Source: Elsinoe ampelina (taxonomy: Eukaryota). From it: a stretch of DNA of 64,000 nt. Shown piece after piece: positions 21,674-46,789 of this stretch. The stretch lies in the NCBI GenBank assembly GCA_010093995.1, contig ML992511.1, forward strand, positions 850,155-914,154, written 5' to 3'. How positions within the stretch are numbered: the first letter of the stretch is position 1; every line of letters begins with the position of its first letter. Both the position numbers and the translations under genes were made by a program. A model generated the notes under the pieces. That model did not search any database, was not told the DNA's origin, and was given only the letters and a program-made list of their open reading frames with translations.

Positions 21674-22499
21674 TAGTGTAACTATTAGGGCGGGGTTAGC
21701 CCCTTTAGGTTTAGTACTGTACTAGGGTTTAGGTTAGCCTCTAGCTAGCGTAGTGCTACTAAGGGCTTAGTAGTACTAGCACTAGCTCCGCACCGTAGCT
21801 ATAATAGTACTATACTAGCACTAGGTATAGGTTAGGTTATATACATTCTAGACGTAGTATAGTACTAGGTTAGGTCGGCAGATAAGTAGTGTAGTGCTAT
21901 TAAGTCCTTAGCGTACCTTTACTAGCACTATACTAGAGTTGCTATTCTTATAGTAAATTCTTATAGTAACTACTATATCCTATAACTCTTATTACTTTTC
22001 CGCTCTAAACGCTTAAAGTTATAGTAGGTAAAGGATACTAGAGAGAAGTAAAAGTTATTAATTATTAACCCTTATATACAATTATAACCTAATAGTAATT
22101 TATAGAAGATTAACCTAATTAATATTATCTATATAACCCCTATAAGCCTATTTTATATACTTAGCTAGCAAGCCGTATACTACCTAGAACTAATACTTTA
22201 TTATCTTATTATTTGCTTTATCCGGAGAATATTCTATCCTTAGCAAGTTTACCCTTATATAAATTATAACTCTTAACTAGTAAACCGGAGTACTAAAGCT
22301 ATTAGGTAGAGTCTAAGACTAGAATAATTAGTTCTAGGCAGTTTAGCCTTTCTACTAACTTATAGTATAGTTGCGAATTGCCTTAATGCTATTAGATTAC
22401 TAGTTAATAGTAAGTATAAGGCTGTCTAGGGCCTTAATCTCTACCTAAAGGTTGTTAATAAATTTATAGTAAGTAATATTAGCCTAACGAATAATAGAG

Positions 22500-24050: not shown

Positions 24051-24099
24051 CTATTAACTAGATATGCTTAGAATACTAGCCTCTAACCTTAGTAACGTT

Positions 24100-25750
24100 A
24101 TATAGTAGATCTTTGTCCTTATTATACTCTTCTTCCTCGTTAACCTCTTTATTACTTAAACTATAAGTAGTAATATCTCTAAAGTTGTTACTTATACTAT
24201 CTATTCCGCTATTAGTATTATTATTAGCAGTAGTAAAATTGTCTATCTTAGCTAATTAGATGTTTTAAAGATTGTTTTCTACTAGCTTAGAGACTATAAT
24301 TTGTTAAATTGTCTATAGAAGTAGTCTATATCTTTAATCGCTAATAACATTCTTTACTATATTAAAAATATATTTAACACCTACGCCGGCGATTAGTATT
24401 ATAAGAATATTATAAGTAATACAAGCTAGTCGTAGAAATAAGTGCTTATTTTCTTTCTACTAAGAAAGAATATTAAATTCTAATATTTCTTATATAGGTA
24501 GAGTTCTAAGATAATCCTTCCTTTCTATCCTTATTATATAGATGTCGCTCTACCCTTACGAAAGTATATTATCTTAGCTAGATACTAGAGGTGTAAAGCT
24601 ACTTCTCGTATTTAACAAGGAAGGCTTCTTAAACTAGTAAGTAATAGACGAGGCTAGTAGAGGAGGTAGGAGAGTAGTTTAAAAAGGGTAGTTATTATTA
24701 TAACAATCGAGGTAGTTAAGGAACTATTTATAGTAAAGCAATTTAAAATATAGTTCCTACGAAGTATACTTATACGCACTAAGTTTCTAAGTTAGATCTA
24801 AGATTATACTATAATTAAACAAGAAACCTTAACCTCTACTTGTTTGCTTATAATACTTAGAAAGCTTAGTATAACTAGCTTTCGCTATATTTTATATAAC
24901 TAATAGCTAGTCTAAGTTGTTATCCTCTTCCTAAGTAGACTTAACTATATTAAGGAAGTCGAAAAGGGTATTATACATAAGCTATATATATTGTACTAAT
25001 AGTGTATAAGACTAACTTAGCTAGTTAGTTACATTCTTAAAATTCTCTAGTATTTAGACGACAATCTTTAGATATGCCTATTTAGCATAGCCGAGGTAAA
25101 GGCGTTTTATATCTATATAATTAATAGATGCTATGTCTTAATTAGCTAGCGCTTTATTAGTTTAGGGCTTATATGCAATTACAATCTCTACGTTAAGCTA
25201 TTTATTAATAATTAGTTAAAGTTTAATAGCTCGCTTATATATATTATATATTAAGTTCTAATAGGTGTAAATATCCCGAACGACTAAGAGTCGTTTATAA
25301 GGAGGTAGATACGCTTAAAGAGATTTAAAGTGTTAGTAGCGTTAAGAGAATTAGTTAATTATAATATAAATCGTATAGAGCTTTAAAATTAGTTAAAAAA
25401 CTATAAGAAAGAACTATAAGAAATATAACTTACTTTATAGAGAGAATTCGGAACTAATAGAGTTATTTAAATATTATAGAGATGCTACTTCTTAAGCTTA
25501 TTAGCTTTCTTATTGTCCTCGGTAGTTTCTAGCTATAGAGCTTAAATAATATCTTATATAATAAGATTAATTACATAGGCTAGATATAGAATTATATTCT
25601 TAATAGAGGACTAGTATATATTCTTCTTCTTAAGACCTTATTATACTTTAGATCGTAGAGTGTTATTATTGCTTATATTGTCCGCTATAATAGTAAGAAG
25701 ATATATGTTAATCTTTTTTTTATTTAGAACTCTTAGTAGTTCTATACTAA
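24100..25750 (-). pseudogene. hAT transposase, 3' part
   Basis: De-RIP: LLAITADNASNN (~25700), PCLAHVINL (~25585), VVRDICTRWNSTY (~25280), and C-terminal dimerisation motif FPRLACIARDILAIPIAGVGVERIFN (~24440-24360); intron 25381-25433. Confidence 0.9.
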
Positions 25751-26213
25751 TGTCACGAACCGTCTAAATATAGCCTACGCTAGTAGTCTAAGCTAAGCCA
25801 AGAACGAGGTAGTTCTACTTCTATAGTAGTATAGCACTAAGGTAAGAGTTAGAGAAGGTATGTCTTATAGATAATAAAGTACAATTAGATAGTATTATAA
25901 AGGCTAGCCTTAGTAATACTAGTGTTTGCTATCTAGACGAGGTTAACTATAGTACTTATATAAGGTAAGGACTACTCCTATATATATGTATTCTTTACTA
26001 CGTACTCTATATACTCTATGTGCTCTATAGCGAGAATCGGAGGCAATATAGAGTATACGTCCGCTAGTAACCTACGTACTCTATAGTCCCCGGGGTAGAG
26101 CTACTAGAGAAGATAGAGAACCGGGTAAATGTCGGGCTAGGTTACGTAATAACCTTAGTAGTTTAATTAGTCCTAACATCTCTACGCTTTAGCTGTCCTA
26201 CTAGTTTATAACA
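25751..26213 (-). repeat. gypsy copy 1, 3' LTR
   Basis: TGTCACGAAC...GTTTATAACA; adjacent to the reverse-complement PPT TTACTCTCCTCCCTT. Confidence 0.95.
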
Positions 26214-26287
26214 TTACTCTCCTCCCTTAATTAAGTTATTCTAACAAGTAAGTATTCTTCTTTATCCTTATACGCTATATACTAAAT

Positions 26288-26840
26288 ATGCCTCCTAGTT
26301 GTTAAAGGTATAGTAAATCTAGTATATTTATATAAAAGAACCTCTCGAAGTTTATTAAATTGTTTAGAACTAACATACTATAAGCTTACTCTCGTTATAA
26401 GTCGAAAGGGCTAGACTATAAAGTCTATATTTAGTTAGGTATTTATAGCTAGTGTATTACGAGTAACTACTTAGGTTATAATATTTAAGTAACAAAATTA
26501 GAATAGTAGCGTCTCTAGTCTAAGTATATTTATTTGCGAAAGGAATTAGTTATAGCTAAGGCTACTAGAAAGGAAGCTAAAGAAGCTTATAAAAAGGTAA
26601 AAAAGGCTTATTAAAGAGCTATAGGTAATAAGCTTTACCTACGCGAAGAGATGTAAAAGTTAGAGGACAAGGTAGAGAAAGTAATTTCTCTAGAAGAGAC
26701 CTGTATTTAAGTCTTAGAGTAGGAGGAAATACTATCGTTAGTAGATCCCGTCCTACTATAGGACTAGTAATTATTTATGCCTAACTCTAATTAGAGTTTC
26801 TTACTTAACAACGATTAAGGTGCTTCTATTAGTTAAGTAA
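26288..26840 (+). pseudogene. antisense Cys-rich plus coiled-coil ORF of gypsy copy 1
   Basis: ATG at 26288; frame de-RIPs to MPP...ACSRCKSKGLDCKVHIRSGICGQCVASNCSGCD..EWQRLQSE..RLRKEL..ELRLREEMQKLEDK..ISLEE; 3' end uncertain. Confidence 0.7.
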
Positions 26841-29800
26841 TCTTCCTTAGGTATTCTCGTTTTTATTTAGTATTTAGAGTACTAGGTCCGTTTAGTTAGT
26901 TTACTTAGGATAGGTTCTCGATCTAGTAATCTAGAATTACTTACGAGGTAAGGTGCTCCTCTAGTTCCTATATTACTTCGCTATACTAATGTCCCTTCTA
27001 GTAAATAAGATAGTAGCGTTTTTCTTTTATAAGTTTATAACGTAAAACTCTTTTAATCTTATACTATAGCTTCTATGTTTCTTTATCTAGTTCGATAGGT
27101 CTAGGTATAGTATTCTATAGTACTTTCTCTAGTAGTGATATATAAAAGACTAGATAGATCCTTATATGTCTTAGTAGTTCTAGTTTATATACGTTCTTAT
27201 TTTTCTTTTCTAGAATCTTAAAGAGTTCTAGTTTAGTATAGTTAAGTTTCTTACTTAGTTATTTCGTTTTAATGTTTTTACTAAGGAGATAAACTTTCTC
27301 TCCCTCCTATAGAATTAGTCCCGTAATTCTCTTCTAGTTAGTAAATTCTACTATTCTTTGTAATATAAATACTATATTGTAGTATAGCTAGTTATATAGT
27401 TTCTTAATATTAGCTACTAGTATATTAGCGTCCTTAGATATTAGCTTAATTCCGAGTATGTCGTAGTATAGATCTAGGTATATTCTATAGTTTACGTAGA
27501 ATAGTGAAATTCTATTTGCTAGCTTTCTATTGTTAATAGCGAGCTCTATAAGTAGTAATAGTATTACCTATAAGTCTTACTTATAGTTTAGGTAGTATTA
27601 TAGGTACTACTCTAGTACTTAATTTGCCTATTTAGTTTGTCTGTCTATTTATAGATAAAAGGAAGTTAATAGCTTATGTTTAACTCCTAGTAGGTCTATA
27701 AATAATTACTAGAATTGTAACGTAAATAGCTTATCCCTATTAGTTATTAGGTCTTATAGTACTCTATATTATAAAACAATTGTTTAAAGGAAGGTAAAGG
27801 CTATATCCTCGGTAGTTGCTATTGTCTTATATAGTATAAAGTAGTAATACTTCGTAAACCTATCTACTAGGACTAGAATGCTATTATACTTTACACCTGT
27901 AAGAGGTTCTTCTAATAGCGGTAAAGGTCCTATAAAGTCTATTATAACTAATTACTATAGTTTATCTAGTAGTAGCAAGGGTTATAATAGGCTATATAGC
28001 TTATGTCGTAAGTGCTTAGACTTATAGCATGTATCGTATATAGTAATATATGTCTTAATATCGTTTCGAAGTTCTTTCTATAGGTAGTTTTATATAATAA
28101 GTTTAATAGTCTTATTAATCCTACTATGCCCTACTATTAAGTTATTATAGTATATTTAAATAACTTCTTTCTTCTGTTCTTACGTAAGCTCCTAGGTAAG
28201 GCTATATAACTACTTTACCTTCGGGTGCTTATAGACTAGAGCGCCGTCTTACTACTTTAGTATAGAGGCCTCTATTATTATTATGTTCTTTAAGTAATTT
28301 AGTTGTCGGCTAAGAGCGTCTACTCTACTATTCTCTAATCTCTTAATATAGTAGATCTAAAAGTTGTAGCTTATAAGTGTTTCTAACTATCGAACCTGTT
28401 ATCTATTAAGAACCTTAGTTATTGTTTAATATAATAGGTTCTTATAGTTAGTATAGACTTATATAGGTAAGGTTATTTCTTCTAGGTATACTCTCTATTT
28501 GCGGAATGCCTTTATAATTATAAGTAACTCCTTGTCGTATATGTCGTAGTTAAGTTTAGGTCTAGTTATTTTTTATAAGTAGTATATGATTAGGTAGCAT
28601 TATTCTTCCGCGTCCTTCTATGCTAGATACACTTCTATTATAAAGTCTAAGGTATCTGTTTCTAGTAGTGCTTATTAGTCTAGGTCGAAGAGTACTAGGA
28701 CAGGTACTATTATAAGTCTAAGCTTTAGTTCCTTAAAGGCCTACCTACATTTCTTATTAAAGACAAATCTAGTTTCTTTCTTTAGAAGGTTAAATATTAG
28801 TATAGCTACCTTAGAGAATCCTTTAACAAACTTATAGTAGTAGTTAAAGAACTCTAGTAGCGCTTAAACCTCCCTAACTATAGTAGGTTCTAGCTAGTTA
28901 TTTACTAACTTAATCTTTTTTAGGTCGGGTCTAATACTATTAGTAGATATAACATAGTCTAGAAATTGTATCTTATGTTTATAAAACTTATACTTAGAGA
29001 GCTTTACTAGTAGGTCTTTTTCTTTTAGTTTCTATAGTACTTTATAAATATGTCCTATATGTTTATTATATATCTTTAAGAAGATAATAATATTATCTAA
29101 ATATACTAAGATAAAGTTATTAAGGTATTCTCGTAGAGTATTATTAATTAACTCTTAGAAGGTTATAGAAGTGTTAGTTAACCTAAAGAGCATAACGAGG
29201 TACTTATATAGACTCTATTACGTCCTAAAAGCCGTCTTCTACTTCTTACTCTTCTTTATTTATACTTAATAATAGGCATTCCTAATGTTAATTACGGTAA
29301 ACTATTTAGCTCTAAGTAGTCGGTCTTAAAGTTCGTTAATCCTTAGTAGGAGATAGCAATTCTTCCTAGTAAGTGTATTAAGTTTCTAGTAATTAATATA
29401 TATTTGTAATATTCTATTCTTTTTAGATACAAAAAGTACTTCGTATATAATAGGTAATTTTAATAGTTGTATAAATCCTTTAAGTAAGTACTTATCGATA
29501 TAGTTCTTAAGGACGTTCTTCTCTTATTTCGATAGTAGTATAAGACCTTAATAGTATATTAGGGATTTACTCTCTTTAAAGAGTATTTCGTAATTCTATA
29601 GTTTATGTTAGAGTAAGGCTATAATGCCTTTTCTTTCTTTAAATAAGTCCTTAAAGTCTTTATATTCTAGCGGAAGTGCTTAATTACTTACGCTAGCGAT
29701 AGCTCTAACTATTAGTTATACTTATGCTATTCTTATAGTTAGTATCTACGGAGCTAATTATGCTCCCTACGTCCTATAATTACACTTAGGGAATTCGAGT

Positions 29801-32311
29801 GTTTCTTTAATCTAGTCTACGTCTAGATTATATTATTAAAGCTAGTCTATACTAAGTACTATGTTATACTACATGTCTACTATATTAATTAATTGTTTTT
29901 CTATGTGTGTTTTAATTTTAATTATAACATTTTATAGTTCCTAAGTGACTTTTCCGTTCTTCTCTATAGGGGTTCTATCCGCTATAGTAAGTAGGTAAGG
30001 TAACTCCTTCTAGTGTTAATAAGGTTTAAGCTAATTAGTAACTATTATAGAGACGTAGCTACAGTTAGCTCCCAAATCTATTATTACTCTTACCTTACTC
30101 CCTTATATTTTAACTTCTAGTATAAAGTAGTTTAACATGTAGATCTTTATTATATTAAGGCTTTAGCTAGTGTTATTATCTTACCTTATTAGGCGACAAC
30201 TAGCTAGTTTTTTGTTATTATAGCTCCTTAGATAAGTAGCTAATCCCTTCCTATACGTATCTACTATTAGTACTATATCTATTAAGCAAGTTATGTTTTA
30301 TCGCTATTTAATATAGTAAGGTAAACTTCTAGCGCCTAAGTCCCTTAGTGACTATAAAGTCTAATAATTCTCTACTAGTTATACTAAGTAGTATTATATA
30401 CCTATATTAGTATAACTATTCCTTCCGGGTATAGCTAGGTATTAGCATTAAAGATAAAAACAAGTTATATAGATTTGTCTTATAGTGTCCTATTCTAGTA
30501 GTAGGTGTATATTATTATATAATTCCTCTATATTCCTATAAGGTATACTTTAAGTTGTCCGCCTAGTAGTAGTATATCGTCGTTGTTATTGTCGTTGTTA
30601 GATAAGTCCTTATCTATGTTGTTATATTATAGTTATTCGGTGTATTCTTTGTTATATTTCTCTTTATCGCTACTATCCCTAGTATAGTTATAGTTAGTAA
30701 GGCTATACCGAGTATATTCTCTTACTTAGCTATAGGGGATAGTACTACCTATTTTAATTACCGAGAAGTCCGTAGTGTATTTAAGACTAATAGTGTCTTC
30801 TCTAAGTACGTTGTATAAGTAGATAGTATAGTACTATTTATAATTTGGATTTATACATTTCTAGAGCGATATATAATATACCTTTCCTTATAGTACGCTA
30901 TAAGGGCTAAAGGTAAGGCTACTATATTATTATATAGCACTTACGTCCTAATACTTTGTCTTAATAATTATATATTAGTAATTGTCGCTAACTACCTTCT
31001 AAGATTAGTTACTATTACTACTAATTATAGAGAGCTCTTCTAGGTTAGGTTCCTAGTTTAGCTATTTCGTTAATTACCTACGCTTAGATAGCTTATATAG
31101 GAACTAACTAGATCCCTACTTATCTAATAAGTAAATATAACAAGAGTTATTATAATATGCTATCTATAATAGCGTTACGTGTTAGCTTTATTATTTACTA
31201 TTAGTCGTAGAGATATTAAGTATAACATCCGGAGAGGATTCTACTACCTCTTAAGTTATTATAGACTTCTTCTATGTTTCCTTACCTACGCTAAAGGTCG
31301 TTAGGTCTTCTATAGTAGTGTTAGTCTTTTTCTCTACTAGCCTAGTAACTATTATATGTAATTTATTAGCTAGCGCCTCTTATCGGTAGTCCCTAGCCTA
31401 ATACCTAGGTCTTTTATACTTAAAACATAGATTGTCTTATCTATACTTCTCTCTCTCTTTTCTACTAAGGAACTTTCCTCTATAGCTATAGCCTTGTACC
31501 TATAAGGGGCAGCCTTTGCGTATAGTATTAAGTTCTATAGAGTCTCTATAGTTTCGAGAGGAACGTATATATCTAGTGTTTGCCTTATATCCTCTATAAC
31601 GTTCTATATGTCGTTTATAAAGTCTATTGTTAATAGCAATTATAGTGTCTACTAGTTCCTAAAGGCTATTAGGCAGCTCGAGTATTATTTAGTCTTTGAC
31701 TAAGTCGCTTAGTCCTTAATAGAATACTAAGTGTTTAGCACTATTGTCCTAGTCTAGATATATTATAAGTTATTAGAACTAGGAATAGTACTAGGCTATA
31801 GACCTATATTGTCGTAGTTGTTAGATCTTTATTATAGCAACGCGTTCCTTATTAGATACGTTAAAGACTTACTTAATCTTTGCCTAGAAGATACTAAAGC
31901 TCTTAAAGATAGCCTTTGTATCTAGGCCTAGTTATCTATCTAGGTAGCTACTTATATAAGGCTCGAACTACCCGAAGGCGGCGCCTTTAAGGTGTATCCT
32001 AGCATAGAGGACCTTTGCCGCGTCGTTAGCGTACTTATCTCCCTCTAGAGCAAAGAAGGCTTTAAGTTAAATAAGGAAGCGCCTTAAGTAAGCGTAGTCC
32101 CTATAGAAAAGTTCTACCTCTAACTTAGGCCTACTCTATTCTTCTATACTAAAAGACCTTCTATATTTGCCCGAGGTTAAACTAGTAGTAGACATGTTAT
32201 TAATAGTAAGCTTTCCTAGCTTACTAGCGATTGAAGATACTAATAGTAACTTAGAGCGAGAGTTACTTATTAACCTCGTAGCGTGCTATACTATAGTAAG
32301 GGTAGTTAAAA

Positions 32312-32774
32312 TGTTACGAACTGTCTAAACATAGCCTATACTAGTAGTCTAAGCTAAGCTAAGAACGAGGTAGTTCTACTTCTATAGTAGTATAGTACTA
32401 AGGTAAGAGTCGAAGAAGGTATATCTTATAGATAATAAAGTACAATTAGATAGTATTATAAAGGCTAGCCTTAGTAATACTAGTGTTTACTATCTAGACA
32501 AGGTTAACTATAGTACTTATATAAGGTAAGGACTACTCCTATATATATGTATTCTTTACTATGTACTCTATATACTCTATATACTCCGTAGCGAGAATCA
32601 GAAGTAATATAAAGTACATGTCCGCTAGTAACCTACGTGCTCTATAGTCCCCGGGGTAGAGCTACTAGAGAAGATAGAGAACCGGGTAAATGTCAAGCTA
32701 GGTCACGTAATAACCTTAGTAGTTTAATTAGTCCTAACGTCTCTACGCTTTAGCTGTCCTACTAGTTCGTAATA
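32312..32774 (-). repeat. gypsy copy 1, 5' LTR
   Basis: 463-bp match to 25751-26213. Confidence 0.95.
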
Positions 32775-33650
32775 GCTAAGCGTAACTCTAGTATACTATT
32801 TGCTAATTAGTACAAAATCTAGTAGGCACTTACGTACTTACTAGTTATTATTAATATAGTATACCTTTATAGCTACAAAACTTAGATACTTATTCGTAGA
32901 CTAGCTATCTAGCATAATTAAAACTTTTATCTAACTACTAAGATTAGTAAGAAGATTAGACTAAATGTCCTTATAGTGCTCTTTTAATAGCTCTAAGGCC
33001 TATGTCTAACCTAGAATATTAGTATATAGCTAGAGGAAATATATAAATTAGAGAAAGAAGGAATTATTAACTATTTAGAATAACTAATTACAATTAATAA
33101 GGACCTTAATAAGCTCTTTTTTAAATTGTTCTAGAGAGAATTATAGTATATAGGATATAGTACTAGTAGCGTTCGCTTTTAATTATATTAGAGCTATCTA
33201 AGCTACTAATTATTTATAGCTAGGAGATTTTATATTTTAGTAGCTTTAGCGTCCGAGATGTTTTGTTAGGTGTTTATTACTAATTAAGTTTATTATTAGG
33301 TGTTATAAAGCTCTACTATAGCGGAGATAATACACAAGAGGTATTTTATTAGCAAGCTTAGCACCTTTATTAAAGTTAGCCTAAATAACTCTATAGCGGG
33401 TTATAGAATTCTAGTTTAGTAGATTTCGTGTTTTACTAACCCTTAATTCGCTACCTATTAATATTATAAGCTACTATGTTTTCTAGGCTTATATAGCTAG
33501 CTATTCTTCGAGTAGTATATCTAGTTAGTAGGGTAGACAGCTAACAATTTTAATAGTTTTATAGAATCGAGTAGAGAATAAATTATCCTAGTAATTAACA
33601 TAAAACTCTTTAAGCTCGTAGGGGAGAAGTAGTAGTAGCGTAATAACTTC
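32775..33650 (-). pseudogene. hAT transposase, 5' part (probable BED zinc finger)
   Basis: Continues the transposase across the gypsy TSD; de-RIP CxxC...KHL pattern at ~33335-33255. Confidence 0.7.
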
Positions 33651-33879
33651 TAAGAGTATCTATAGTTAAGGATTAACTAAGTCTTTATTAAATATTAACA
33701 TTTTAAGAGTAGAGATATAGAATATTACTAGCTATATAACAAGGAGTAGAAGACTATAAGAATGCTCTATAAGAATCTATTAGCTACTCTTAATTTATAA
33801 ATTAAAAAAATTTTAATAGTATAGAACTAAAAAGCTACTAAAACTATAGTTTAATTTTCCTAACTTAAGGTTAATCTAT

Positions 33880-35130
33880 TTATTCTTATCTATATTATCC
33901 TTACCTTTACTCTCCTTATTATTATTATTACTCTTATCTATTGCCTTATTATTATCTTTATCCTAATTCTCTTTATTAGAATTGTTAAAGTCTCTAGTAG
34001 TAACTACTTTACGGTATATTTTAGCTACTTCCTTAGTCTTATACTTGTTAGGTTCCTTATTAAGAAGGTTCTTAATCTTAGAGTTGTTCTTAACTTCTTC
34101 TTTAACCTTGTTATTACTATACTTAACATAGTAATTATTAGATTTAAGTAAAATATTATTATTCTTATACTTAAATTCTAGTTCGGGAGTAGGTTTATAT
34201 TTACTTTAATAAATTAGTATATAACTATAAGAAATAACTATAAGAAATAATATATACCTAATTATCTACCTATACTACTTAGAGTTTAGTAGGTGTTATA
34301 TTCTTAATAAACTTCTTAAACTTAGCTTAGTTACTATCGTTATAGTTGCTAGTATTATATAGCAAGTTAACACTATTATAGTAGATCTTATAGGTCTATT
34401 TCTTAAGAATTCTACTAGTGCTAAGAAGATGTTTTACTTAGCAATTTAGGAATATATTTATCTCGTTATAGAGTGCCTTCTTTATATAATTAGTAAGGAG
34501 TTACTTATAGTAAAGGAGAGTATTAGCTTTATAGATACTACTCTATTTTTAGTAGATAGATATAAACTTATTCTTTAACTATTTCTCTATATAGAATTAG
34601 TAGATATACTATAAGAATATACTATAAGAAATATACTACTCTACTAGGTATAATAGCAAGTCTCTACTATCTTCTTATATACTATATCGAAGGTAGCTTC
34701 TTTCTCCTTATCGAATATTACTTAGAATTCCTTAGAGTTTTTAAGTTTTGCCTTAAGTATACATTTTATAGAGCAATTAGTATTACTAGTAGTAGTAAGG
34801 GCTTTCTCCTCTATACTAGCTTATATAGCGTAATCTCTTTACTAAATAGCTTACTAGGTATTACTAAGCTATACTTTCTACTATAGAATTCTAAGGGGGT
34901 AGCTATAGTAAGAAGTTCTAGTATTTTAAGAGCGATTTTTAATCTAGTATTTAATCTTATTAGCCTCGGAATTAAAACTCTATAGTCTAGTTAGTATTTA
35001 ACTATAAGAAGCATCTATAAGAATTACTTCTATTATAGTAAGGATTACTTCCTCTTCCTTAGTTATTTCTTTAGTCTTAATTACTAGAGCATTAGTTATC
35101 TCTTTCTCTTTACTAAAGGTTTACTAATCT
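33880..35130 (-). pseudogene. second accessory ORF of the hAT element, with at least 3 introns
   Basis: Minus-strand GT..CTAA(C/T)..AG introns at ~34204-34257, 34587-34639 and 34980-35027 separating charged coding-like exons; no domain recognised. Confidence 0.5.
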
Positions 35131-35523
35131 ATAGAATTAGTAAACATTATAGATTAAGAATTAGTAGTAATTTATAAGAGAAGGTAGAATATTAAGTATA
35201 ACAGGGAGTAAGATATAAGATATAAGTTTTATAAGGAGAAGATAAGGAGAGAAGGATTTAGTATTCCTTATATATATAGTAAATAGAGTAGCTAGAAATA
35301 CAAGTAATAATAGGTATTAATCCTATTATTATACTAATATAAAGTCGTTAATATTATTAATATAAAGTTATTATAGTAGAGAATAACAATACGAAATTTA
35401 TATTCTATATACTATTATAAATTCCTTAATAAGGCTTAATATCTCGCTCTTAGTATTTTCGCCTTACTCTTCTCTACCTTTATAAACAAATTTTAATAAT
35501 TAATTTAACAAATTTATATAGCT

Positions 35524-36105
35524 ATAGCTTGTAAGAAGCAAGTAATACCTCTAAAAAGGGTAAAGCTAAGGAAGTAAGGCGCTAAGAAAACCACTACTAA
35601 AAAGCCTACTATAGGTAGTTATATAACAAAATTTAGACTAGTATTAACTAGACAAATTCGCTAGGTAAAGAGCTATAGGTTTAAGCTAGGTAGTTAGTTT
35701 CTTATAGTAAATTCTTATAGTCTTATATCTAATATAGTATAGCTATTACTCTCCGAGAGATTTGTCGCTACTAGAAGATAACTAAACTTCTTATATATAA
35801 GCTTCTCTTCTTCTACGTTATTCGTAACATTATGTAAGATATTAAGTTAACACTTATAAGTAGAGATTTACGCTTTACGCTAGATGCTATTAAGTGTCTC
35901 TAGGAAGCAAGTAAAGTAATACTAGTAGGATATTTCGAAGGTATATTAACTATGTATTTAGAATATATAATACCTTATACTAACAACTATAGTAGACTAT
36001 AATCTTAACGCTATCTATACTAAGCGTTATACTATTATATAGAAAGACTCTTAGCTTACTAGGAAATATTATAACAAGTACTACCTACTTACTTTCTCTA
36101 ATTAG
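35524..36105 (+). pseudogene. histone H3-like variant gene inside the hAT element, RIP-inactivated
   Basis: De-RIP: MARKKQ...PRKQ...[92 protein letters not shown]; introns 35693-35742 and 35941-35995 with GT/branch/AG signals restore the frame. Confidence 0.93.
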
Positions 36106-36552
36106 TAAGACCTCTCCTCTATAATACTATAAGAATAAACTATAAGAAATAGGTAAGTATATTTTTACATAGACTAGACTATTAAATTTCCTTTCTATAG
36201 ACTTATTACAATACTAAAGTATAGTATAGTAACTATAGTTACCTTAAAGCCTAACTAAGGCGTAGTACTATAACGTAGTATAATACTAGGATTTAACTCT
36301 AGTGCTAATTCGGTATAGTACTATCGTAGTATAGTATAGCGCTATTATAGTATAGTACTATTCTTGCTTAACTATAGTATAGTACTAGTACTAGTATAGC
36401 TCGGCGTAGTACTAGTACTAGTGCTAATATAGTAGGGTACGGAGCTAGTACTGTTTAGTTTAGCACTAGGTGCCGACCTGCTAAGAATAGCTCTATACTA
36501 GCACTAGGGTCGGCCTTTAGCCGCTCTAACTCCGCTCTAATAGTTACACTAG

Positions 36553-37957
36553 AACTTTCGATAGTATACTAGTGTTTCTCGGTATCTAATACTTCTTATA
36601 CTACTTAGCTATTAAGTAATAGACAGGTTAAGAGTAGAAGAGTATCGTGCGCTAGATGCTTCTAATATTTATACTGCTACTTAAGGAGGTTAAGGCGCCT
36701 TAAGCTATTAAGTTTATACGCGCACTAGTTAACTTTATATTACTAGTAAACTATAAGACCTATAACGACGATATACTCTAGTATATTAACCTTACGCTCT
36801 TTAGAATAAACAAGTATAAAGAAACCTTCTAGGCCTATTATAGTAACAGGAAAGAAGAGAGCGACTTTAACTTTCTAAAATAGTACTTAATAACACATTT
36901 TTTAAAGGCTATCTATAATTTTAGAGTAGTTACTAGCCTCGATTCTAATTATTTAGAGCATAATTATATATACTTTATTAAGGACGCCTTTAAACTTACA
37001 AACAAGAAGGCTAGATAGAAAGACTAGGTTACTACTTATAATACTAAACTAGTAAATATGTTAGTAGTATTTAATAACCTCTCGAAGTTAGTTAGGCTAT
37101 CGGCTACTAAACTAATTAAGATCTAAAGTACGCTAGTTAGCGTAAGCGATATAGTAAATGTTACTTCTTAGTTTAGCTAGCCTAGTACTAAGGAGAGAGC
37201 TATATAGCGTATAGTAAGAGAACTAGAGGCGCTTATTAATATACTACCTAGGCTATTACTATAGTAAGTAATAGCAGTATTTATCCGCGAGGCTTATTAA
37301 GGTATAGCTAAGATAGGCTCTAACTTAAGAACTAAATACTCTAATTAGTTTAACGCTAAACTAGATCCCGATAGACTTAAACTAGATTCTTCCTAGGTAA
37401 GCGACCTCTACGTTAAGTTCTACTATTCTTTAAAGTGTAGGAAACTATCTAACTATAATCCTAATAATCCTAATATAGACAAATAAGACTTTATCTAGTA
37501 TATAACTAAATAGTAGAGGATATATAGCAATAAGAGACAAGACTAGCTCTAGGTATAAGAATAGACAACAAATAATAAAGGCACTAATAGAGTATTACCT
37601 AATAGCCTATAAGGTAAGTTACTAACTTATATTATATTTATAATAACTATAGAGGATAGCTTCTAGTCTAGTAGATCGAGCTAGCGTTAACGCCTATACT
37701 ACATAGGAGCGCTAGTAGATCTATATTAGCCTACTTAGCCGGATAGAGTAGCTAATTAAGAGCATAGTATAACACTAATTAAGTCTTAGATAAATCGACA
37801 CGCGCGAGTTAGACGGAATACTCTTACTAGTAGGTATATCTACTTTACCTCGTAAATCTACTATAGTATCTACGTTATACTAGTAGATAAAACAAAGCTA
37901 TATAGCTAGATATATATTAATAACATAGCTGACTTTAACATATATAATATACTATAG
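36553..37957 (+). pseudogene. Plavaka-family transposase, 3' part
   Basis: De-RIP: FDSIPVFPGI, WTGQEQKSIVRQML, RALVDFILLANYKTHNDDTL, FNFPKWHSMTHF, SEHNHIHFIKDAFKLTNKK, RQDWLWVQE, ending YINNMADFNMYN at ~37950. Confidence 0.88.
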
Positions 37958-38049
37958 AATAAGTTATAGAAGTCTAAATAGCTTTACCTAGCTAAGGCTT
38001 TAAAATAAGAGAGGTTAAGATCCCTAGGTATAGTTAGTAAGTATAGTAG

Positions 38050-38730
38050 GCATTAACGAAGCTAGAGTACTCCTTTTGTAGCTAGAATAATCGTCTCTTA
38101 CATTAATAGCCTAACGCTTAGGTATACTTAGGTTAACTACTAGACTATATTAGGTAGGCAAGTTATAATAATAACTTCCGTAGGTATTACCCTAACTAGT
38201 TAGTTTACACCTATATATTATTAAGTTAGTCTCTAAACTATATAGGGTTTATAGCCTAAGGTGCCTTATATAGTTTTTACGCTAAAGAGTTAGTCTATTC
38301 CTTTACTAATTATAATAGCTTAGGAAATTATAGTAAGGCATTATAGAAGTTAGTCTTTAAGATGCTTAAGACATACCCTAAGTATTTAGTAACAGCGGTA
38401 AAAGGCTTAGGTTAGTAAGTTATCTTTAGGTTAGTTTTACTAACGGAGTTAGTAGTCTAAGAGGAAAGTTTATTCTCTATAATAAGTTTACTAATAAGAC
38501 TCTAATATAGATAATAGCGCTTTACTCTATTTACTATTATATTATAGAGATCTACTCGATACTACTAGAGTAGTTACTAAGGACTTATTCCTTTCTATCT
38601 AATAGACAAGATCTATAATAATACTAGCTTAGAAGACCCGCTAGGGAATATTCTTATTAATCTCTATATATATACTATACACGGGAAATAAGTTAAGAAA
38701 GAAGCTACTCTTTAGTATAGCAAGTAGCCT
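38050..38730 (+). pseudogene. BTB/POZ-like ORF remnant, paralogue 1
   Basis: DKIYN(D)NTS(G)L(S)EDPLGNILIN(D)L at ~38606-38665 resembles the IYxxTxxxSPLRxLLVD end of Dothideomycete BTB proteins; nucleotide match to 47207-47285. Confidence 0.4.
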
Positions 38731-39634
38731 CTTCTTTGTCCTCTAAAGCCTCCTCTATATCTATATAAGTTATAAGTATTTCCTTGTAAGATTATTAGTG
38801 TATAATATATATATAATAAATCCTATCTATAAGATTATATACTAGATTATTCTATACGCGCTATTACTACAACTATTACTTAGTAGTAGTAATAGTAGAG
38901 TAGCGGGATATAGTAGAAAAAAGTGTTATTATATCTACCTTTAAGAGGGGAATACTCTCTTTCTCTTCTATATCTTTCTTCTCGCTCTCCGCTATAGTAA
39001 GGTATACTATAACTAAAGCTACTACTACTGCTCCCTCTATAACTACTATTACTTATATATAGCTATAACTACGAGTTATTACTAGAAGCTTAGTACGCGT
39101 CGGGGTGACCTTATCTTTAATATATAGTAATAAAGTACTATAATCTTAACCCGGACACTACTTCTATTACCTCTCCGACAACTACTATAACTAGCGCTAA
39201 GGGCTAGTAAGGCAAGAAGTATACTACCTCTACCTTCGCTAGTGTCTATAGCTATACTAGTATTAAGCTTAGTAAGGCAGAGGAGAAGAGTAAGAAGCAG
39301 AAGAAGCCTCTTATTATTACTAATTACCTCCTTACTAATAACCTTATAGATAGGTAGTTAGGGTAGATCTTAAACTTCCTAGAAAGAGTATTTACTTCTC
39401 TACTATAACTGCCTTTAAGCTATCGTTTAGACTACTATGTCCTTAGTACTATCTCTAGAGCTACTTAGATACTATACTAATATCCATTAGACCTTACTTT
39501 TCTAGGTAGTCTTTCATAGCTCTAGAATTATTCTTCTAGTAGGTATACTATTCCGTGTTAGTAGACAAGGGATTAGCTTAGCCTAAACTAAATGTCTATT
39601 ATATTTCCTATACCTATCTATATTAGTATTAATC

Positions 39635-40097
39635 TATTACGAACTAGTAGGACAGCTAAAGCGTAGGGATATTAGGACTAATTAAACTACTAAGGTTATT
39701 ACGTAACCTAGCCCGATGTTTACTTAGTTCTCTATCTTCTCTAGCGGCTCTACCCTAGAGACTATAGAGCACGTAGGTTACTAGCGGACGTGTACTCTAT
39801 ATTACTCCTAATTCTCGCTACGAAGTATATAAAGTACATAAAGTACATAGTAAAGAATATATATATATAGGAGTAGTTCTTACCTTATATAAGTACTATA
39901 GTTAACCTCGTCTAGATAGTAAACACTAGTATTACTAAGGCTAGCCTTTATAATACTATCTAATTGTACTTTATTATCTATAAGATATACCTTCTCTAAC
40001 TCTTACCTTAGTGCTATACTACTATAGAAGTAGAACTACCTTGTTCTTAGCTTAGCTTAGACTACTAGCATAGACTATATTTAGACAGTTCATAACA
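39635..40097 (+). repeat. gypsy copy 2, 5' LTR
   Basis: Reverse complement of the copy 1 LTRs; 463 bp. Confidence 0.95.
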
Positions 40098-42195
40098 TTT
40101 TAACTACCCTTACTATAGTATAGCACGCTATAAGGTTAATAAGTAACTCTTGCTCTAAGTTACTATTAGTATCTTTAATTGCTAGTAAGCTAGGAAAGCT
40201 TACTATTAATGACATGTCTACTACTAGTTTAACCTCGAGCGAACATAGAAGGTCTTTTAGTATAGAAGGATAGAGTAGACCTAAGTTAGAGGTAGAACTT
40301 TTCTATAGGGACTGCACTTACTTAAGGCGCTTCCTTATTTAACTTAAAGCCTTCTTTGCCCTAGAGGGAGATAAGTACGCTAACGACGTAGTAAAGGTCC
40401 TCTATACCGGAATATATCTTAAAGGCGCTACCTTCGAGTAGTTCGAGCCTTATATAAGTAGCTACCTAGATAGATAACTAGGCCTAGATACAAAGGCTAT
40501 CTTTAAGAGCTTTAGCATCTTCTAGGCAAAGATTAAGCAAGTCTTTAACGTATCTAATAAGAAACGTATCGCTATAACGAAGATCTAATAACTATAACAA
40601 CGTAGGTCTATAGCCTAGTACTATTCCTAGTTCTAATAACTTGTAATGTATCTAGACTAGGACAATAGTACTAAACACTTAGTATTCTATTAAGGACTAA
40701 GCGACTTAGTTAAAGACTAAATAATACTCGAGCTGCCCGACAGCCTTTAGGAACTAGTAGATACTACAATTGCTATTAATAATAGACTTTATAAATAACA
40801 CATAGAACGTTATAGAGAATATAAAGTAAATACTAAATATACGTATTTCTCCCGAAACTATAGAGACCCTATAGAACTTAATGCTATATGTAAAGGCTGC
40901 CTCTTATAGATATAAGGCTACGGCTATAGAGGAAAGTTCCTTAGTAGAAAAGAGAGAGAGAAGTATAGACGAGATAATCTATATTTTAAGTATAAAAGAC
41001 TTAGGTATTAGGCTAGGGACTACTAATAAGGGGCGCTAGCCGATAGATTATATATAATAGTTGCCGGGCTAGTAGAGAAAAAGGCTAATACTACTATAGA
41101 AGACCTAACGACCTTTAGCGTAGGTAAGAAAACATAGAAGGAGTCTATAATAACTTAAGAGGTAGTAGAATCCTCTCTAGATGTTATACTTAATATCTCT
41201 ATAACTAATAGTAAATAACAAAGCTAATATATAACGCTATTATAGATAGTATATTATAATAACTCTTGTTATATTTACTTATTAGACAAGTAGAGATCTA
41301 GTTAGTTCCTATATAAGCTATCTAAGCGTAGGCAACTAACGAAATAGCTAGACTAGGAACCTAACCTAGAAGAGCTCTCTATAATTAGTAGTAATAGTAA
41401 CTAACCTTAGAAGGTAGTTAGCGATAATTACTAATATACAATTATTGAGATAAAGTATTAGGACATAAGTGCTATACAATAATATAGTAGCCTTACCTTT
41501 AGCCCTTATAGCGTACTATAAGGAAAGGCATATTATATATTACTCTAGAAATGTACAAATCTAGATTGTAAATAGTACTATACTATCTACTTATATGACA
41601 TACTTAGAGAAGACACTATTAGTCTTAAATATACTATAGACTTCTCGGTAATCGAAATAGGTAGTACTATCCCCTATAGCTAAGTAAGAGAATATACTTA
41701 GTGTAGCTTTACTAACTATAACTATACTAGGGGTAGTAGCGACGAAGAGAAATATAACAAAGAATACACCGAATAACTATAATATAACAACACGGATAAG
41801 AACTTATCTAATAACAATAATAACAATAATAACGTACTACTACTAGGCAGACAACTTAAAGTATACCTTATAGGGATATAGAGGAATTATATAATAATAT
41901 ACACCTACTACTAGAATAGGACACTATAAGACAAATCTATATAACCTATTTTTGTCTTTAATACTAATGCCTAGCTACACCTAGAAGGAATAGTTATACT
42001 AATATAGGTATGTAACACTACTTAGTGTAACTAGTAGAGAATTATTAGACTTTATAGTTACTAAGGGACTTAGGCGCTAGAAGTTTACCTTACTATATTA
42101 AACAGCGATAAAACACAACTTACCTAATAGATATAGTACTAATAGTAGATACGTGTAGGAAGGGATTAGCTACTTATCTAAGGAGCTATAATAAC

Positions 42196-42233
42196 AAAAA
42201 ACTAGCTAGTTGTCGCCTAATAAGGCAAGACAA
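42196..42233 (+). promoter_or_regulatory. probable -1 ribosomal frameshift signal between gag and pol
   Basis: Slippery heptamer AAAAAAC followed by a hairpin TTGTC-GCC...GGC-AA-GACAA, just upstream of the protease; heptamer conserved in copy 1 (~30207-30213, minus). Confidence 0.6.
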
Positions 42234-45200
42234 TAACACTAGCTAAAGCCTTAATATAATAAAGATCTACATGTTAAACTACTTTATACTAGAAGTTAAA
42301 ATATAAAGGAGTAAGGTAAGAGTAATAATAGATTTAGGAGCTAACCGTAGCTACGTCTCTATAATAGTTACTAATTAGCTTAAACCTTATTAATACTAGA
42401 AGGAGTTACCTTACCTACTTACTATAGCGGATAGAACCCCTATAGGGAAGAATAGGAAAGTTACTTAGGAACTATAAAACGTTATAATTAAAATCGAAAC
42501 ACATATAGAAAAATAATTAATCGATATAGTAGATATATAGTATAATATAGTACTTAGCATAGACTAGCTTTAATAACACAATCTAGACGTAGACTAGATT
42601 AAAGAAACACTCGAATTTCCTAAGTATAATTATAGGATATAGGGAGTATAATTAGCTCCGTAGATACTAACTATAAGGACAGTATAGGTACGACTAATAG
42701 TTAGAGCTATTACTAGCGTAAGTAATTAAGCACTTCTACCGGAATATAAAGACTTTAAGGACTTATTTAAAGAAAGGAAAGGCATTATAGCCTTACTCTA
42801 ATATAAACTATAGAATTATAAAATACTCTTTAAAGAGGGTAAATCCCTAATATACTATTAAGGTCTTATACTACTATTGAAATAAGAGAAGAACGTTCTT
42901 AAGAACTATATCGATAAGTACTTACTTAAAGGATTTATATAACTATTAAAATTACCTATTATATACGGAGTGCTTTTTATACCTAAAAGGGATAGAATGT
43001 TATAAATATGTATTAATTACTAGAAACTTAATACACTTACTAGGAAGAATTACTATTCCCTACTAAGGATTAACGAACTTTAAGACTAACTACTTAGAGC
43101 TAAATAGTTTACCGTAATTAACATTAGAGACGCCTATTATTAAGTATAAATAAAGGAGAGTAAGGAGTAGAAGATAGCTTTTAGAACGTAATAGAGTCTA
43201 TATAAGTACCTCGTTATGCCCTTTAAGTTAACTAATACTCCTATAACCTTCTAAGAGTTAATTAATAATACTCTATAAGAATACCTTAATAACTTTATCT
43301 TAGTATATTTAGATAATATTATTATCTTCTTAAAGATATACAACAAACACGTAGGACATATTTATAAAGTGCTATAGAAACTAAAAGAAAAAGACCTACT
43401 AGTAAAGCTCTCTAAGTATAAGTTTTATAAATATAAGATACAATTTCTAAGCTATATTATATCTACTAACAGCATTAGACCCGACCTAAAAAAGATTAAG
43501 TTAGTAAATAACTAGCTAGAACCTACTATAGTTAGGGAGGTTTAAGCGCTACTAGGGTTCTTTAACTACTACTATAAGTTTATTAAAGAATTCTCTAAGG
43601 TAGCTATACTAATATTTAACCTTATAAAGAAAGAAACTAGATTTATCTTCGATAAGAAATATAGGTAGGCCTTTAAAGAACTAAAGCTTAGACTTATAAT
43701 AGTACCTATTCTAGCACTCTTCGACCTAGACTAATAAGCACTACTAGAAATAGATACCTCGGACTTTGTAATAGAAGTGTGTCTAGCGTAGAAGAACGCG
43801 GAAGAATAACGCTACCTAATTGTATATTACTTACGAAAAATGACTAGACCTAAACTTAACTACGATATATATAATAAGGAGTTACTTACAATTATAAAGG
43901 CATTCCGCAAATAGAGAGTATACCTAGAAGAAATAACCTTACCTATATAAGTCTATACCGACTATAAGAACCTATTATATTAGACAATAACTAAGGTTCT
44001 TAACAGATAATAGGTTTAATAGTTAGAAACACTTACAAGCTATAACTTTTAGATCTACTATGTTAAGGGATTAGAGAATAGTAGAGTAGATGCTCTTAGC
44101 TAATAACTAGATTACTTAAAGAACATAACAATAATAGAGGCCTCTATACTAAAGTAGTAAGATAGCGCTCTAGTCTATAAGCACCCGAAGGTAGAGTAGT
44201 TATATAGCCTTACTTAGGAGCTTACGTAAGAACAGAAGAAAGAAGTTATTTAAATACACTATAATAACCTAATAGTAGGGCATAGTAGGATTGATAAGAC
44301 TATTAAACTTATCACACGAAACTACCTATAGAAAGGACTCTAAAACGATATTAAGATATATATTACTATATATAATATATACTACAAGTCTAAGTACTTA
44401 CGACATAAGCTATATAGCCTATTATAACCCTTACTACTACTAGATAAACTATAGTAATTAGTTACAATAGACTTTATAGGACCTTTACTACTATTAGAAG
44501 AACCTCTTACAGGTATAAAGTATAATAGCATTCTAGTCCTAGTAGATAGATTTACAAAGTATTACTACTTTATACTATATAAGACAATAGTAACTACTAA
44601 GGATATAGCTTTTACCTTTCTCCGAATAATTATTTTATAACACGGAGTACTATAAGACCTAATAACTAATAGAGATAAGCTATTTACATTATAATTCTAG
44701 TAATTATTTATGGACCTACTAGGAGTTAAATATAAGCTATTAACCTCCTTTTATCTATAAACGGACAGATAAACTAAATAGGCAAATTAAGTACTAGAGT
44801 AGTACCTACGATACTACCTAAACTATAAGTAAGACTTATAAGCGATACTATTACTACTCGTAGAGCTTGCTATTAATAATAGAAAGTTAGTAAATAAAAT
44901 TTTACTATTCTACGTAAACTATAGAATATACCTAGATTTATACTATAACATACTCGGAATTAAGCTAATATCTAAGGACGCTAATATACTAGTAACTAAC
45001 ATTAAGAAACTATATAACTAGCTATACTACGATATAGTATTTATATTATAAAGAATAGCAGAATTTGCTAACTAGAAGAGAATTACGGGACTAATTCTAT
45101 AGGAGAGAGAGAAAGTTTACCTCCTTAGTAAAAATATTAAAACGAAATAACTAAGCAAGAAACTTAACTATACTAAACTAAGACCCTTTAAGATCCTAGA

Positions 45201-45569
45201 AAAGAAAAACAAGAACGTATATAAACTAGAACTACTAAGATATATAAGGATCTATCTAGTCTTTTATATATTACTACTAGAGAAAGCACTATAGAATACT
45301 ATACCCGGACCTATTAAACTAGATAAAGAAACATAGGAGCTACGGTATAAGATTAAAAGAGTTTTACGTTATAAACTTATAAAAGGAAAACGCTACTATC
45401 TTATTTACTAGAAGGGATATTAGTATAGCGAAGTAATATAGGAACTAGAGGAGTACCTTACCTCGTAAGTAATCCTAGATTACTAGATTAAGAACTTATC
45501 CTAAGTAAACTAACTAGACAGACCTAGTACTCTAAATACTAAATAAAAACGAGAATGCCTAAGGAAGAT

Positions 45570-46121
45570 TACTTAACTAATAGAAGTACCTTAATCGTTG
45601 CTAAGTAAGGAACTTTAATTAGAGTTAGGCATAAATAATTGCTAGTCCTATAGTAGAATAGGATCTACTAATAACAGTATTTCCTCCTACTCTAAGACTT
45701 AAATACGAGTCTCTTCTAGAGAGATTACTTTCTCCACCTTGTTCTTTAACTTTTATATCTCTTTACGTAGGTAAAGCTTATTACCTATAGCTCTTTAACA
45801 AGTCTCTTTTACCTTTTTATAAGCTTCTTTAGCTTCCTTTTTAGTAGTCTTAGCTATAACTAATTCCTTTCGCAAATAAATACGCTTAGACTAGAGACGC
45901 TACTATTTTAATTTTATTACTTAAATATTATAACTCGAGTAGTTACTTGTAACATACTAGCTATAAATACCTAACTAAATATAGACTTTATAGTCTAGCC
46001 CTTTCGACTTGTAACAAGAGTAAGCTTATAGTATGTTAGTTCTAAATAATTTAATAAACTTCGAGAGGTTCTTTTATATAGATATACTAGATTTACTATG
46101 CCTTTAACAACTAGAAGGCAT
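45570..46121 (-). pseudogene. antisense Cys-rich plus coiled-coil ORF of gypsy copy 2
   Basis: ATG retained at 46121 (minus), the exact equivalent of 26288; co-linear with copy 1. Confidence 0.7.
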
Positions 46122-46195
46122 GTTTAGTATATAGCGTATAAGGACAAGGAAAGATACTTACTTATTAGAATAACTTAATTAAGGGAGGAGAGTAA

Positions 46196-46658
46196 TATTA
46201 CAAACTAGTAGGGCAGCTAAAGCGTAGGGATATTAGGACTAATTAAACTACTAAGGTTATTACGTAACCTAGCTCGACATTTACCTAGTTCTCTATCTTC
46301 TCTAGCGGCTCTACCCTAGGGACTATAGAGCATATAGGTTACTAGCGGACGTGTACTCTATATTACTCCCGATTCTCGCTATAGAGTATATAGAGTATAT
46401 AGAGTACATAGTAAAGAATATATGTATATAGGAGTAGTCCTTACCTTATATAAGTACTATAGTTAACCTTGTCTAGATAGTAAACACTAGTATTGCTAAG
46501 GCTAGCCTTTATAATACTATCTAATTGTACTTTATTATCTATAAGATATACCTTCTCCGACTCTTACCTTAGTGCTATACTACTATAGAAGTAGAACTAC
46601 CTCGTTCTTAGCTTAGCTTAGACTACTAGCGTAGGCTATGTTTAGATAGTTCGTGACA
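46196..46658 (+). repeat. gypsy copy 2, 3' LTR
   Basis: Ends GTTCGTGACA, followed by TSD TAATC. Confidence 0.95.
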
Positions 46659-46789
46659 TAATCTTCTTAGAATAGGCTATAGCCTTGCTACTATAGCCAC
46701 TATTAACGTAGTGTATCTAGCTTCTATTATTATTCTCTTCTTACGTCACTAATAACTTCTAAGTACTAGAACAGGTCTATAGGTATTTA

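Follow-up and report, generated by a model that had tools for sequence, protein, structure and literature searches.

The 64-kb window analysed here, from contig ML992511.1 of Elsinoe ampelina, holds a two-intron histone H3-like gene (H3L) at positions 35524–36105 of the plus strand, within a copy of a hAT-type DNA transposon (Table 1). A preliminary description, made from the letters of the sequence, had proposed a two-intron gene at this place, and our searches agree with it. In a translation of 30003–41000, frame 3 (stops written as X) matched the Pfam family PF00125 Histone with an E value of 9.3e-4. The 67-residue middle piece of the gene matched H3 chains in PDB (best E 2.4e-9), with 171 distinct chains found at E ≤ 1. 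A tblastn search with the canonical H3 sequence of a library protein gave two co-linear pieces, 35745–35939 and 35995–36066 (E 1.1e-10); the next best match in the window had an E value of 0.8, so that no second H3-like copy was found below this value. Once both introns are joined out, the coding parts of H3L total 477 nt and stay in frame, and the exon joins read K-L-G-T-I-T-L-R-E-I at intron A and F-E-D-Y-N-L at intron B.

The placement of H3L inside a pair of hAT terminal inverted repeats (TIRs), which the preliminary description had also put forward, is supported by the TIRs themselves and by a transposase remnant. We suspected an element terminus at 36551 because loose contig ends of low agreement lie behind it: among the contigs of two DNA runs, five of run X1 and four of run X2 continue into unlike sequence behind this position, with an agreement of 0.57–0.59. 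Using a pattern built from the last 22 bases before 36551 and made degenerate for repeat-induced point mutation (RIP), we located an inverted partner at 21674. The pattern has seven matches in the window, a number reached in none of 100 shuffles. The TIRs so found are 26 nt long, start with TAGTGTAACTATTAG and are identical at 24 of 26 positions, both mismatches being of the G/A type. Between them, the match to the hAT transposase dimerisation domain corresponds to residues 429–504 of a minus-strand frame starting at 25800 (stops as X) and scores above the cut-off of the family. The transposase is thus on the minus strand and H3L on the plus strand, about 420 bp inside the right TIR. The transposase region is split by a long terminal repeat (LTR) retrotransposon, copy A, which in a self-comparison of the window aligns over 7,026 bp, at 92.6% identity, with a copy B in opposite orientation at about 39634–46659. 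The LTRs of both copies are about 460 bp long, and the 5-bp duplications at the element ends read ACTAA/GCTAA for copy A and TAATC/TAATC for copy B. A weak Retrotrans_gag match, below its cut-off (E 2.7e-4), lies at about 40.5 kb.

As it stands in the window, H3L is a pseudogene and dead. Its start codon has changed from ATG to ATA and seven of its 158 codons are premature stops, all TAA or TAG, so that this copy has no open reading frame for a protein; the absence of the gene from the list of open reading frames had been put down to RIP stops in the preliminary description, and the codons bear this out. Each premature stop can be derived from CAA or CAG by a single C>T (or G>A) change, five of the seven coincide with a Gln of H3, and there is no frameshift. 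RIP therefore killed H3L by turning ATG into ATA and seven CAA/CAG-type codons into stops. Since one RIP-type transition suffices to explain each of the seven stops and the loss of ATG, and no frameshift accompanies them, the gene would have been open before RIP. Its length differences from H3, namely +48 nt, +15 nt and the changes in the tail and at the C-terminus, are all multiples of three. The 48-nt block was considered as a third intron and rejected: it has ends like those of an intron, yet in trials by eye the reading frame into VKSYRFKLG was lost with each GT...AG stretch that we took out. As keeping the block preserves this frame, we treated it as 16 extra codons of the tail. About 80 bp past the H3L stop codon, at 36184–36207, one frame reads KFPFYRLI, which resembles H3 residues 64–71 and the PFYRLI of a published consensus, Czm, described below; with a tblastn E value of 45 this is not evidence, and it may be chance or what is left of another H3-like copy, like the second one in the elements of Pseudocercospora fijiensis.

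The surroundings of the gene carry the same signature. The window has 26–37% G+C from position 1 to about 47.8 kb and 50–62% G+C at 48–63 kb, and all 18 open reading frames of at least 120 residues fall in the GC-rich part. Indices of RIP, read against their usual thresholds, were 1.84–2.05 for TpA/ApT and 0.19–0.26 for (CpA+TpG)/(ApC+GpT) in the AT-rich part; the GC-rich block gave 0.56 and 1.25. For the hAT element the two indices were 1.84–1.86 and 0.20–0.26, and for H3L 2.05 and 0.22.

The H3L-bearing repeat is present in high copy in the source genome. At an identity of at least 80%, the 6,858 bases of 32776–39633, which hold H3L, were matched by 3,722 contig pieces of X1 and 2,846 of X2, with all 30 bins covered. 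X1 and X2 come from the same sample, possibly the one from which the window was assembled, and so are not independent support; contig depth is not copy number, and our claim is limited to many diverged copies. Within the hAT element the placement of contigs covered the right arm (32776–36551). Transitions account for 352 of the 359 kinds of difference in X1 (A>G 100, T>C 92, G>A 84, C>T 76) and transversions for seven. This excess of transitions among copies speaks for RIP, as does the bias from CpA to TpA in the indices above. Four to six contigs carry variant letters inside H3L, at 35812–35824. Among the differences listed, most other copies read C at 35812, which makes codon 68 TCC (Ser), and other copies read TA at 35823–35824 where the window copy has CG. 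One contig swaps 34799–35988 for 26 letters and another skips 36009–37296. Runs X3 and X6, guessed to be RNA, placed no contigs on 32776–39633, which has no bearing on expression.

Table 1. Features of the hAT element and of H3L in the window (positions are those of the window)
Feature	Position	Strand	Remarks
hAT-type DNA transposon copy	21674–36551		TIR pair, hAT dimerisation domain, RIP indices; 14,878 bp, or ~7,849 bp once the nested LTR element is subtracted
Left TIR, TAGTGTAACTATTAGGGCGGGGTTAG	21674–21699	+	Pairs with the reverse complement of 36526–36551, 24/26
hAT transposase C-terminal dimerisation domain, remnant	24289–24516	-	Pfam PF05699 Dimer_Tnp_hAT; score 22.8 bits (cut-off 21.4), E 7.9e-5
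Nested LTR retrotransposon, copy A	about 25750–32775		Inserted in the hAT element; splits the transposase region
H3L exon 1	35524–35692	+	N-terminal tail; start codon now ATA; two premature stops; frame-1 translation
H3L in-frame 16-codon block	35617–35664	+	Within exon 1; missing from canonical H3
H3L intron A	35693–35742	+	50 nt, phase 1 in the Thr45 codon; GTTAGT...CTAAT...TATAG
H3L exon 2	35743–35940	+	Histone fold from alpha-N through alpha-2; three premature stops, where canonical H3 has Gln55, Gln76 and Gln93
Codon at the Q68 position, TTC	35811–35813	+	H3L exon 2
Loop 1 insert, 5 residues (LTLIS)	35847–35861	+	H3L exon 2; alignment with H3 of PDB
H3L intron B	35941–35995	+	55 nt, phase 1 after Glu105; GTATAT...CTAAC...TAGTAG
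H3L exon 3	35996–36105	+	Alpha-3 and C-terminus; two premature stops; C-terminus longer than that of H3; tblastn 35995–36066, codon table
Codon at the T107 position, TAT	35998–36000	+	H3L exon 3
Right TIR	36526–36551	-	~420 bp past the H3L stop codon
Doublet motif sites	21945–21966, 25401–25422, 33754–33775, 34225–34246, 34609–34630, 35002–35023, 35699–35720, 36127–36148		

As RIP can change residues as well as create stops, we read H3L codon by codon, listing for each codon the residues that can be reached by undoing C>T and G>A changes (T>C, A>G); in this reading, numbering that includes the initial Met equals canonical numbering plus one. The alignment with canonical H3 spans 127 positions. 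H3L has the H3 residue at 61 of them and can reach it in this way at 37; the other 29 are unreachable and include residues 68 and 107 and several positions of the fold and the tail. Residue 68 is Phe (TTC), with F, L, P and S as its possible progenitors and without Q, while residue 107 is Tyr (TAT), with C, H, R and Y as possible progenitors and without T. Phe84 is kept (TTT), Trp being outside its RIP-reversal set. The five residues LTLIS are inserted between K79 and T80 of H3, and T-I-I/M-Q-K-D is present. The tail motifs ARxKQ (ATA GCT TGT AAG AAG CAA), PRKQ (CTA AGG AAG TAA) and VKxHR (GTA AAG AGC TAT AGG) could be recognised in the codons, the last being retained as VK.HR..G. The preliminary description had named these motifs and altered residues, the TIMQKD-like stretch and a loop 1 lengthened by about five residues, and we found each of them; its view of a transposon-borne H3 variant is supported.

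The same description had noted that the tail lacks ARKS motifs. No four consecutive codons of the H3L tail yield A-R-K-S by undoing C>T or G>A changes. A-R-K is reachable at three places of the tail, where the next residues are K, T and P. ARKT can mimic the H3K9 site, and the H3L progenitor may have possessed an ARK-T site of this kind, a methylatable mimic. Those arginines of the DNA contacts that we looked up by eye among the codons are kept or RIP-reachable. Of the features by which canonical H3 is recognised here, ARKS is unrecoverable, residues 68 and 107 are altered and loop 1 is five residues longer; only Phe84 is kept. Judged by their codons, these departures (no ARKS in the tail, the altered residues 68 and 107 and the extended loop 1) did not arise through RIP in the window copy, and they should be real properties of the progenitor of the family, with the reservation about ARK-T.

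Genes of this kind have been described before, and the preliminary description had stated, correctly, that hAT elements amplified H3-like genes in Pyrenophora tritici-repentis and Pseudocercospora fijiensis. In P. tritici-repentis, hAT elements of 5.6 and 2.3 kb carry an H3-like gene, of which there are 26 near-identical intact copies with expressed sequence tags (ESTs) (Manning et al. 2013, PMC3538342). In six Mycosphaerellaceae, an H3-like sequence lies near one TIR of large hAT elements (Dhillon et al. 2019, PMC6710886); the hosts named are Pseudocercospora fijiensis, P. musae, P. eumusae, Cercospora zeae-maydis and Sphaerulina spp. The copies there number in the hundreds and are restricted to AT-rich blocks, and RIP has killed every one of them, leaving stops in place of Gln codons. 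Both reports regard the gene as a captured passenger.

The window element shares with those of the Mycosphaerellaceae an H3-like gene near one TIR, death by RIP, an AT-rich setting and many copies, and with that of P. tritici-repentis a multi-copy, hAT-borne H3-like gene. Like them, H3L lies between hAT TIRs and has been amplified with the element. It differs in several respects from the consensus sequences labelled Czm, Pfi and Peu in supplement 2 of PMC6710886, as far as these could be compared by eye. The TIR starts with TAGTGTAAC in the window element, with TAGAGGTTAG in Czm and with TAGACCCCG in Pfi and Peu. There is one H3L in the window element and one or two H3-like sequences in the elements of the Mycosphaerellaceae. 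Residue 68 is Phe or Ser in the window family, Tyr in the Czm consensus and Gln in the second Pfi copy, and loop 1, five residues longer in H3L, has the canonical length in both of these. A search with a RIP-degenerate form of the Czm-type TIR gave 24 matches in the window against 21.2 expected, which is chance level. The P. tritici-repentis gene, compared here by its published description, is intact, EST-supported and carried by the smaller elements named above, whereas the window element is RIP-dead and about 7.85 kb long. Compared with Pack-MULE-type transduplication, the window element likewise has host-derived coding sequence between its TIRs that was amplified with it, but carries a whole intron-bearing gene, apparently together with its own transposase. 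By these comparisons, the window H3L is a new and distinct family of the known hAT-borne H3 kind.

The introns bear on how such genes were captured. PMC6710886 states that its copies have none ('absence of any intron') and infers passive capture of a transcript, while H3L has two. In its supplement 2, however, two of the sequences, Czm and the second copy in Pfi, show interruptions when read by eye, and these share the two positions and phases of the H3L introns, with GT...AG stretches after (K/R)LG-T45 and after E105; the first P. fijiensis copy is uninterrupted. As read from these consensus sequences, such interruptions would mean that a genomic copy was captured and not only a transcript. 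Of five strings derived from the window and six TIR and motif strings sought in the published consensus file, only AAGCTAGGTAG matched; it occurs once, at the Czm intron junction.

In a library of 1.84 billion representatives, 584 proteins matched H3L at E ≤ 1e-3; the top 12 are H3 fusions, and ordinary H3 comes after them with 53% identity. Neither this library nor the word-index searches held an intact relative with the loop sequence of H3L itself, and a word-index search with the middle exon found no protein of 36–118 residues that shares three 5-residue words with it. The best single-stretch match in the library was P0020, a protein of 79 aa. A word search for its near relatives gave six (P0277–P0282, 65–82% identity) and otherwise ordinary H3, and a word search for longer proteins like it gave only ordinary H3, H3 fusions and CenH3. 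P0020 and the six relatives form seven 90%-clusters of open reading frames of 60–79 residues on NCBI contigs of 365–640 nt. Six of the seven begin just before T45, and six pass E105 into a common short tail, which is the span of H3L exon 2. All seven have a loop longer by five residues, Gln68 and Trp84, and they vary in an RIP-like manner (R>C/W/H, P>L, E>K). These features suggest a further family of H3-like sequences in many copies. Its kinship with H3L is doubtful, with 8 of 17 loop positions RIP-compatible in a hand count and Trp at 84.

We consider it very probable that H3L is a RIP-killed passenger in a hAT element at 21674–36551, with the transposase on the minus strand and later split by the LTR insertion, and that the gene originated from a canonical-type H3. 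According to this account, the H3L frame would have been open and spliceable when the hAT element was last active. It would by then have diverged clearly from the canonical H3 of the host, with no ARKS, 16 extra tail residues, five more residues in loop 1, Ser or Pro at 68 and a residue other than Thr at 107. As all length changes are in frame, this divergence probably arose while H3L was a coding sequence carried along by the transposon. At present H3L in the window does nothing and is heterochromatic filler in an AT-rich isochore. Several points weigh against this account. The hAT ends have no 8-bp target-site duplication: the flanks, GTTTTAAC and GAACTTTC, differ by four transversions and one transition among their eight positions, a one-base shift does not help, and recombination may have brought together ends that belonged to different copies. 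In six frames of 21601–25800 and 30001–41000, with stops masked, there was no match to BED, DUF659 or catalytic-core hAT domains, though RIP damage and introns may conceal further domains. With stops masked, the H3L frame scores 19.9 bits for PF00125, short of the 26.4 at which the gathering score is set. The copy-variant readings rest on 40 of 377 listed differences, other copies not being aligned in full. Membership in the Dothideomycete hAT-H3 phenomenon would be a matter of likeness, and none of the seven published consensus sequences contained the TIR strings of the window or its H3L strings, 11-mers among them, though line breaks in the file might hide a match. Finally, the 29 non-transition differences and the strictly in-frame insertions and deletions fit a selected gene as well as a passenger. 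The missing link of a target-site duplication between the two TIRs, in a region that is a mosaic of nested elements, would also suit a host paralogue of H3 that decayed where it lay, among pieces of transposons, without ever having belonged to the hAT element. This is the least credible of the readings, since the gene-bearing stretch is itself high-copy and contigs vary inside the gene, the gene lies 420 bp inside a TIR, and intron A holds a doublet motif, described below, that in the window is confined to the hAT arms.

An origin from CenH3, or the centromere mimicry suggested in the preliminary description, by which the element would have been targeted to centromeres, is highly improbable. 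CenH3 (CENP-A, Cse4, hH3v) is marked by Trp at 84, a tail unrelated to that of H3, a longer loop 1 and the loss of Gln68 and Thr107. H3L shares the longer loop 1, the lack of Gln68 (Ser being the majority among copies in the differences listed) and the residue other than Thr at 107, but it has Phe at 84, and its tail begins like H3, as (M)AR.KQ, and keeps PRKQ and VK.HR..G. The CenH3 proteins of two Plenodomus species both have Gln68, Trp84 and Ala107, so that loss of Gln68 is not a local CenH3 signature. In the fold, RIP-compatible identity reached 68/85 for the best canonical H3 representatives (12 of which tie) and 64/85 for two fungal H3 proteins, against 57/88 and 56/88 for the two Plenodomus CenH3 (hH3v) proteins; other loop-insert variants ranged from 41/65 to 66/90. 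Because H3L is thus nearer to canonical H3 than to Dothideomycete CenH3, we infer that it derives from a genomic, intron-bearing H3 of the canonical type and not from CenH3. Selection is a more serious competitor of the passenger account than either of these origins, and yet unlikely: H3L could once have been a functional, transposon-encoded histone variant kept by selection, which without the ARKS sites of K9 and K27 might blunt silencing by H3K9me3 and H3K27me3, and of which the window copy would be a relic killed by RIP. The frame that was open before RIP, the length differences in multiples of three, the GT...CTAAY...YAG signals retained in both introns, the arginines kept or RIP-reachable at DNA contacts and the unrecoverable ARKS would all agree with such a variant. 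So would the fact that in two orders of fungi hAT elements have an H3-like gene beside one of their TIRs, with intact, EST-supported copies in P. tritici-repentis, as described in the reports cited. Against it stand the failure to find an intact relative with the H3L loop, the variation of residue 68 and loop 1 among families, as under relaxed constraint, and the judgement of both papers' authors that the gene is a captured passenger. The proposal that H3L was refractory to methylation at K9 and K27 is weakened by the three tail sites where A-R-K is RIP-compatible, one of them followed by Thr. A more specific form of the selected-gene reading, an unlikely one, would make H3L a long-kept gene of one Dothideomycete hAT lineage and not the outcome of repeated chance captures; active elements would encode a nucleosome-competent variant that cannot carry H3K9me3 or H3K27me3 and so dilutes heterochromatin over new insertions. 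This form would fit because H3L adjoins the TIR, has changed in frame only and has lost both ARKS sites, and because the two intron positions are common to at least three element families, counting the published consensus sequences; the variation between those families at residue 68 and in loop 1 looks more like drift than a conserved design. An anti-silencing role of H3L is possible, as its divergence would predate RIP, is in frame and comes without ARKS. Among the papers listed in literature searches, none was a functional study of a transposon-borne fungal H3.

Taken as it stands, the locus adds one to the passenger genes that RIP has silenced in AT-rich isochores of fungi, and its kind was reported in 2013 and 2019. 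To the published cases, as far as their consensus copies were compared, it adds a further hAT-H3L family with different TIRs and an H3 that is much more diverged. The shared intron positions bear on whether capture was of a transcript, as in print, or of genomic DNA. A divergence that goes beyond RIP and is strictly in frame keeps alive the question of whether transposons maintain a histone variant of their own; if this were true, H3L would be a transposon-encoded counter-measure to chromatin silencing that was overridden afterwards by RIP, and a new kind of counter-defence.

The doublet motif TTCTTATAG-N4-TTCTTATAG occurs eight times in the window, always inside the two hAT arms (Table 1). 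These doublets account for 16 of the 21 exact TTCTTATAG 9-mers in the window, where 4.5 would be expected. Five of the eight are in intron-like settings (GT...motif...CTAAY...YAG, about 50–60 nt), four of them on the transposase strand and one in intron A of H3L. The motif is reminiscent of the introner-like elements of Dothideomycetes; alternatively, the doublets may be repeats to which the transposase binds. In the published supplement, as read by eye, Czm and Pfi each have in the corresponding intron a dispersed short motif of those elements' own.

Two further observations concern the flanks of the hAT element. The 3.1 kb between its right end and LTR copy B (36552–39633) are likewise high-copy and diversified by transitions in X1 and X2, and had no Pfam match in six frames. 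Upstream of the element lie three pairs of direct repeats, 6467–7257/13729–14519, 11306–11604/18739–19038 and 12442–12954/19884–20396, whose spacing of about 7.3–7.4 kb and identity of 72–89% suggest a large duplicated or LTR-bounded unit.

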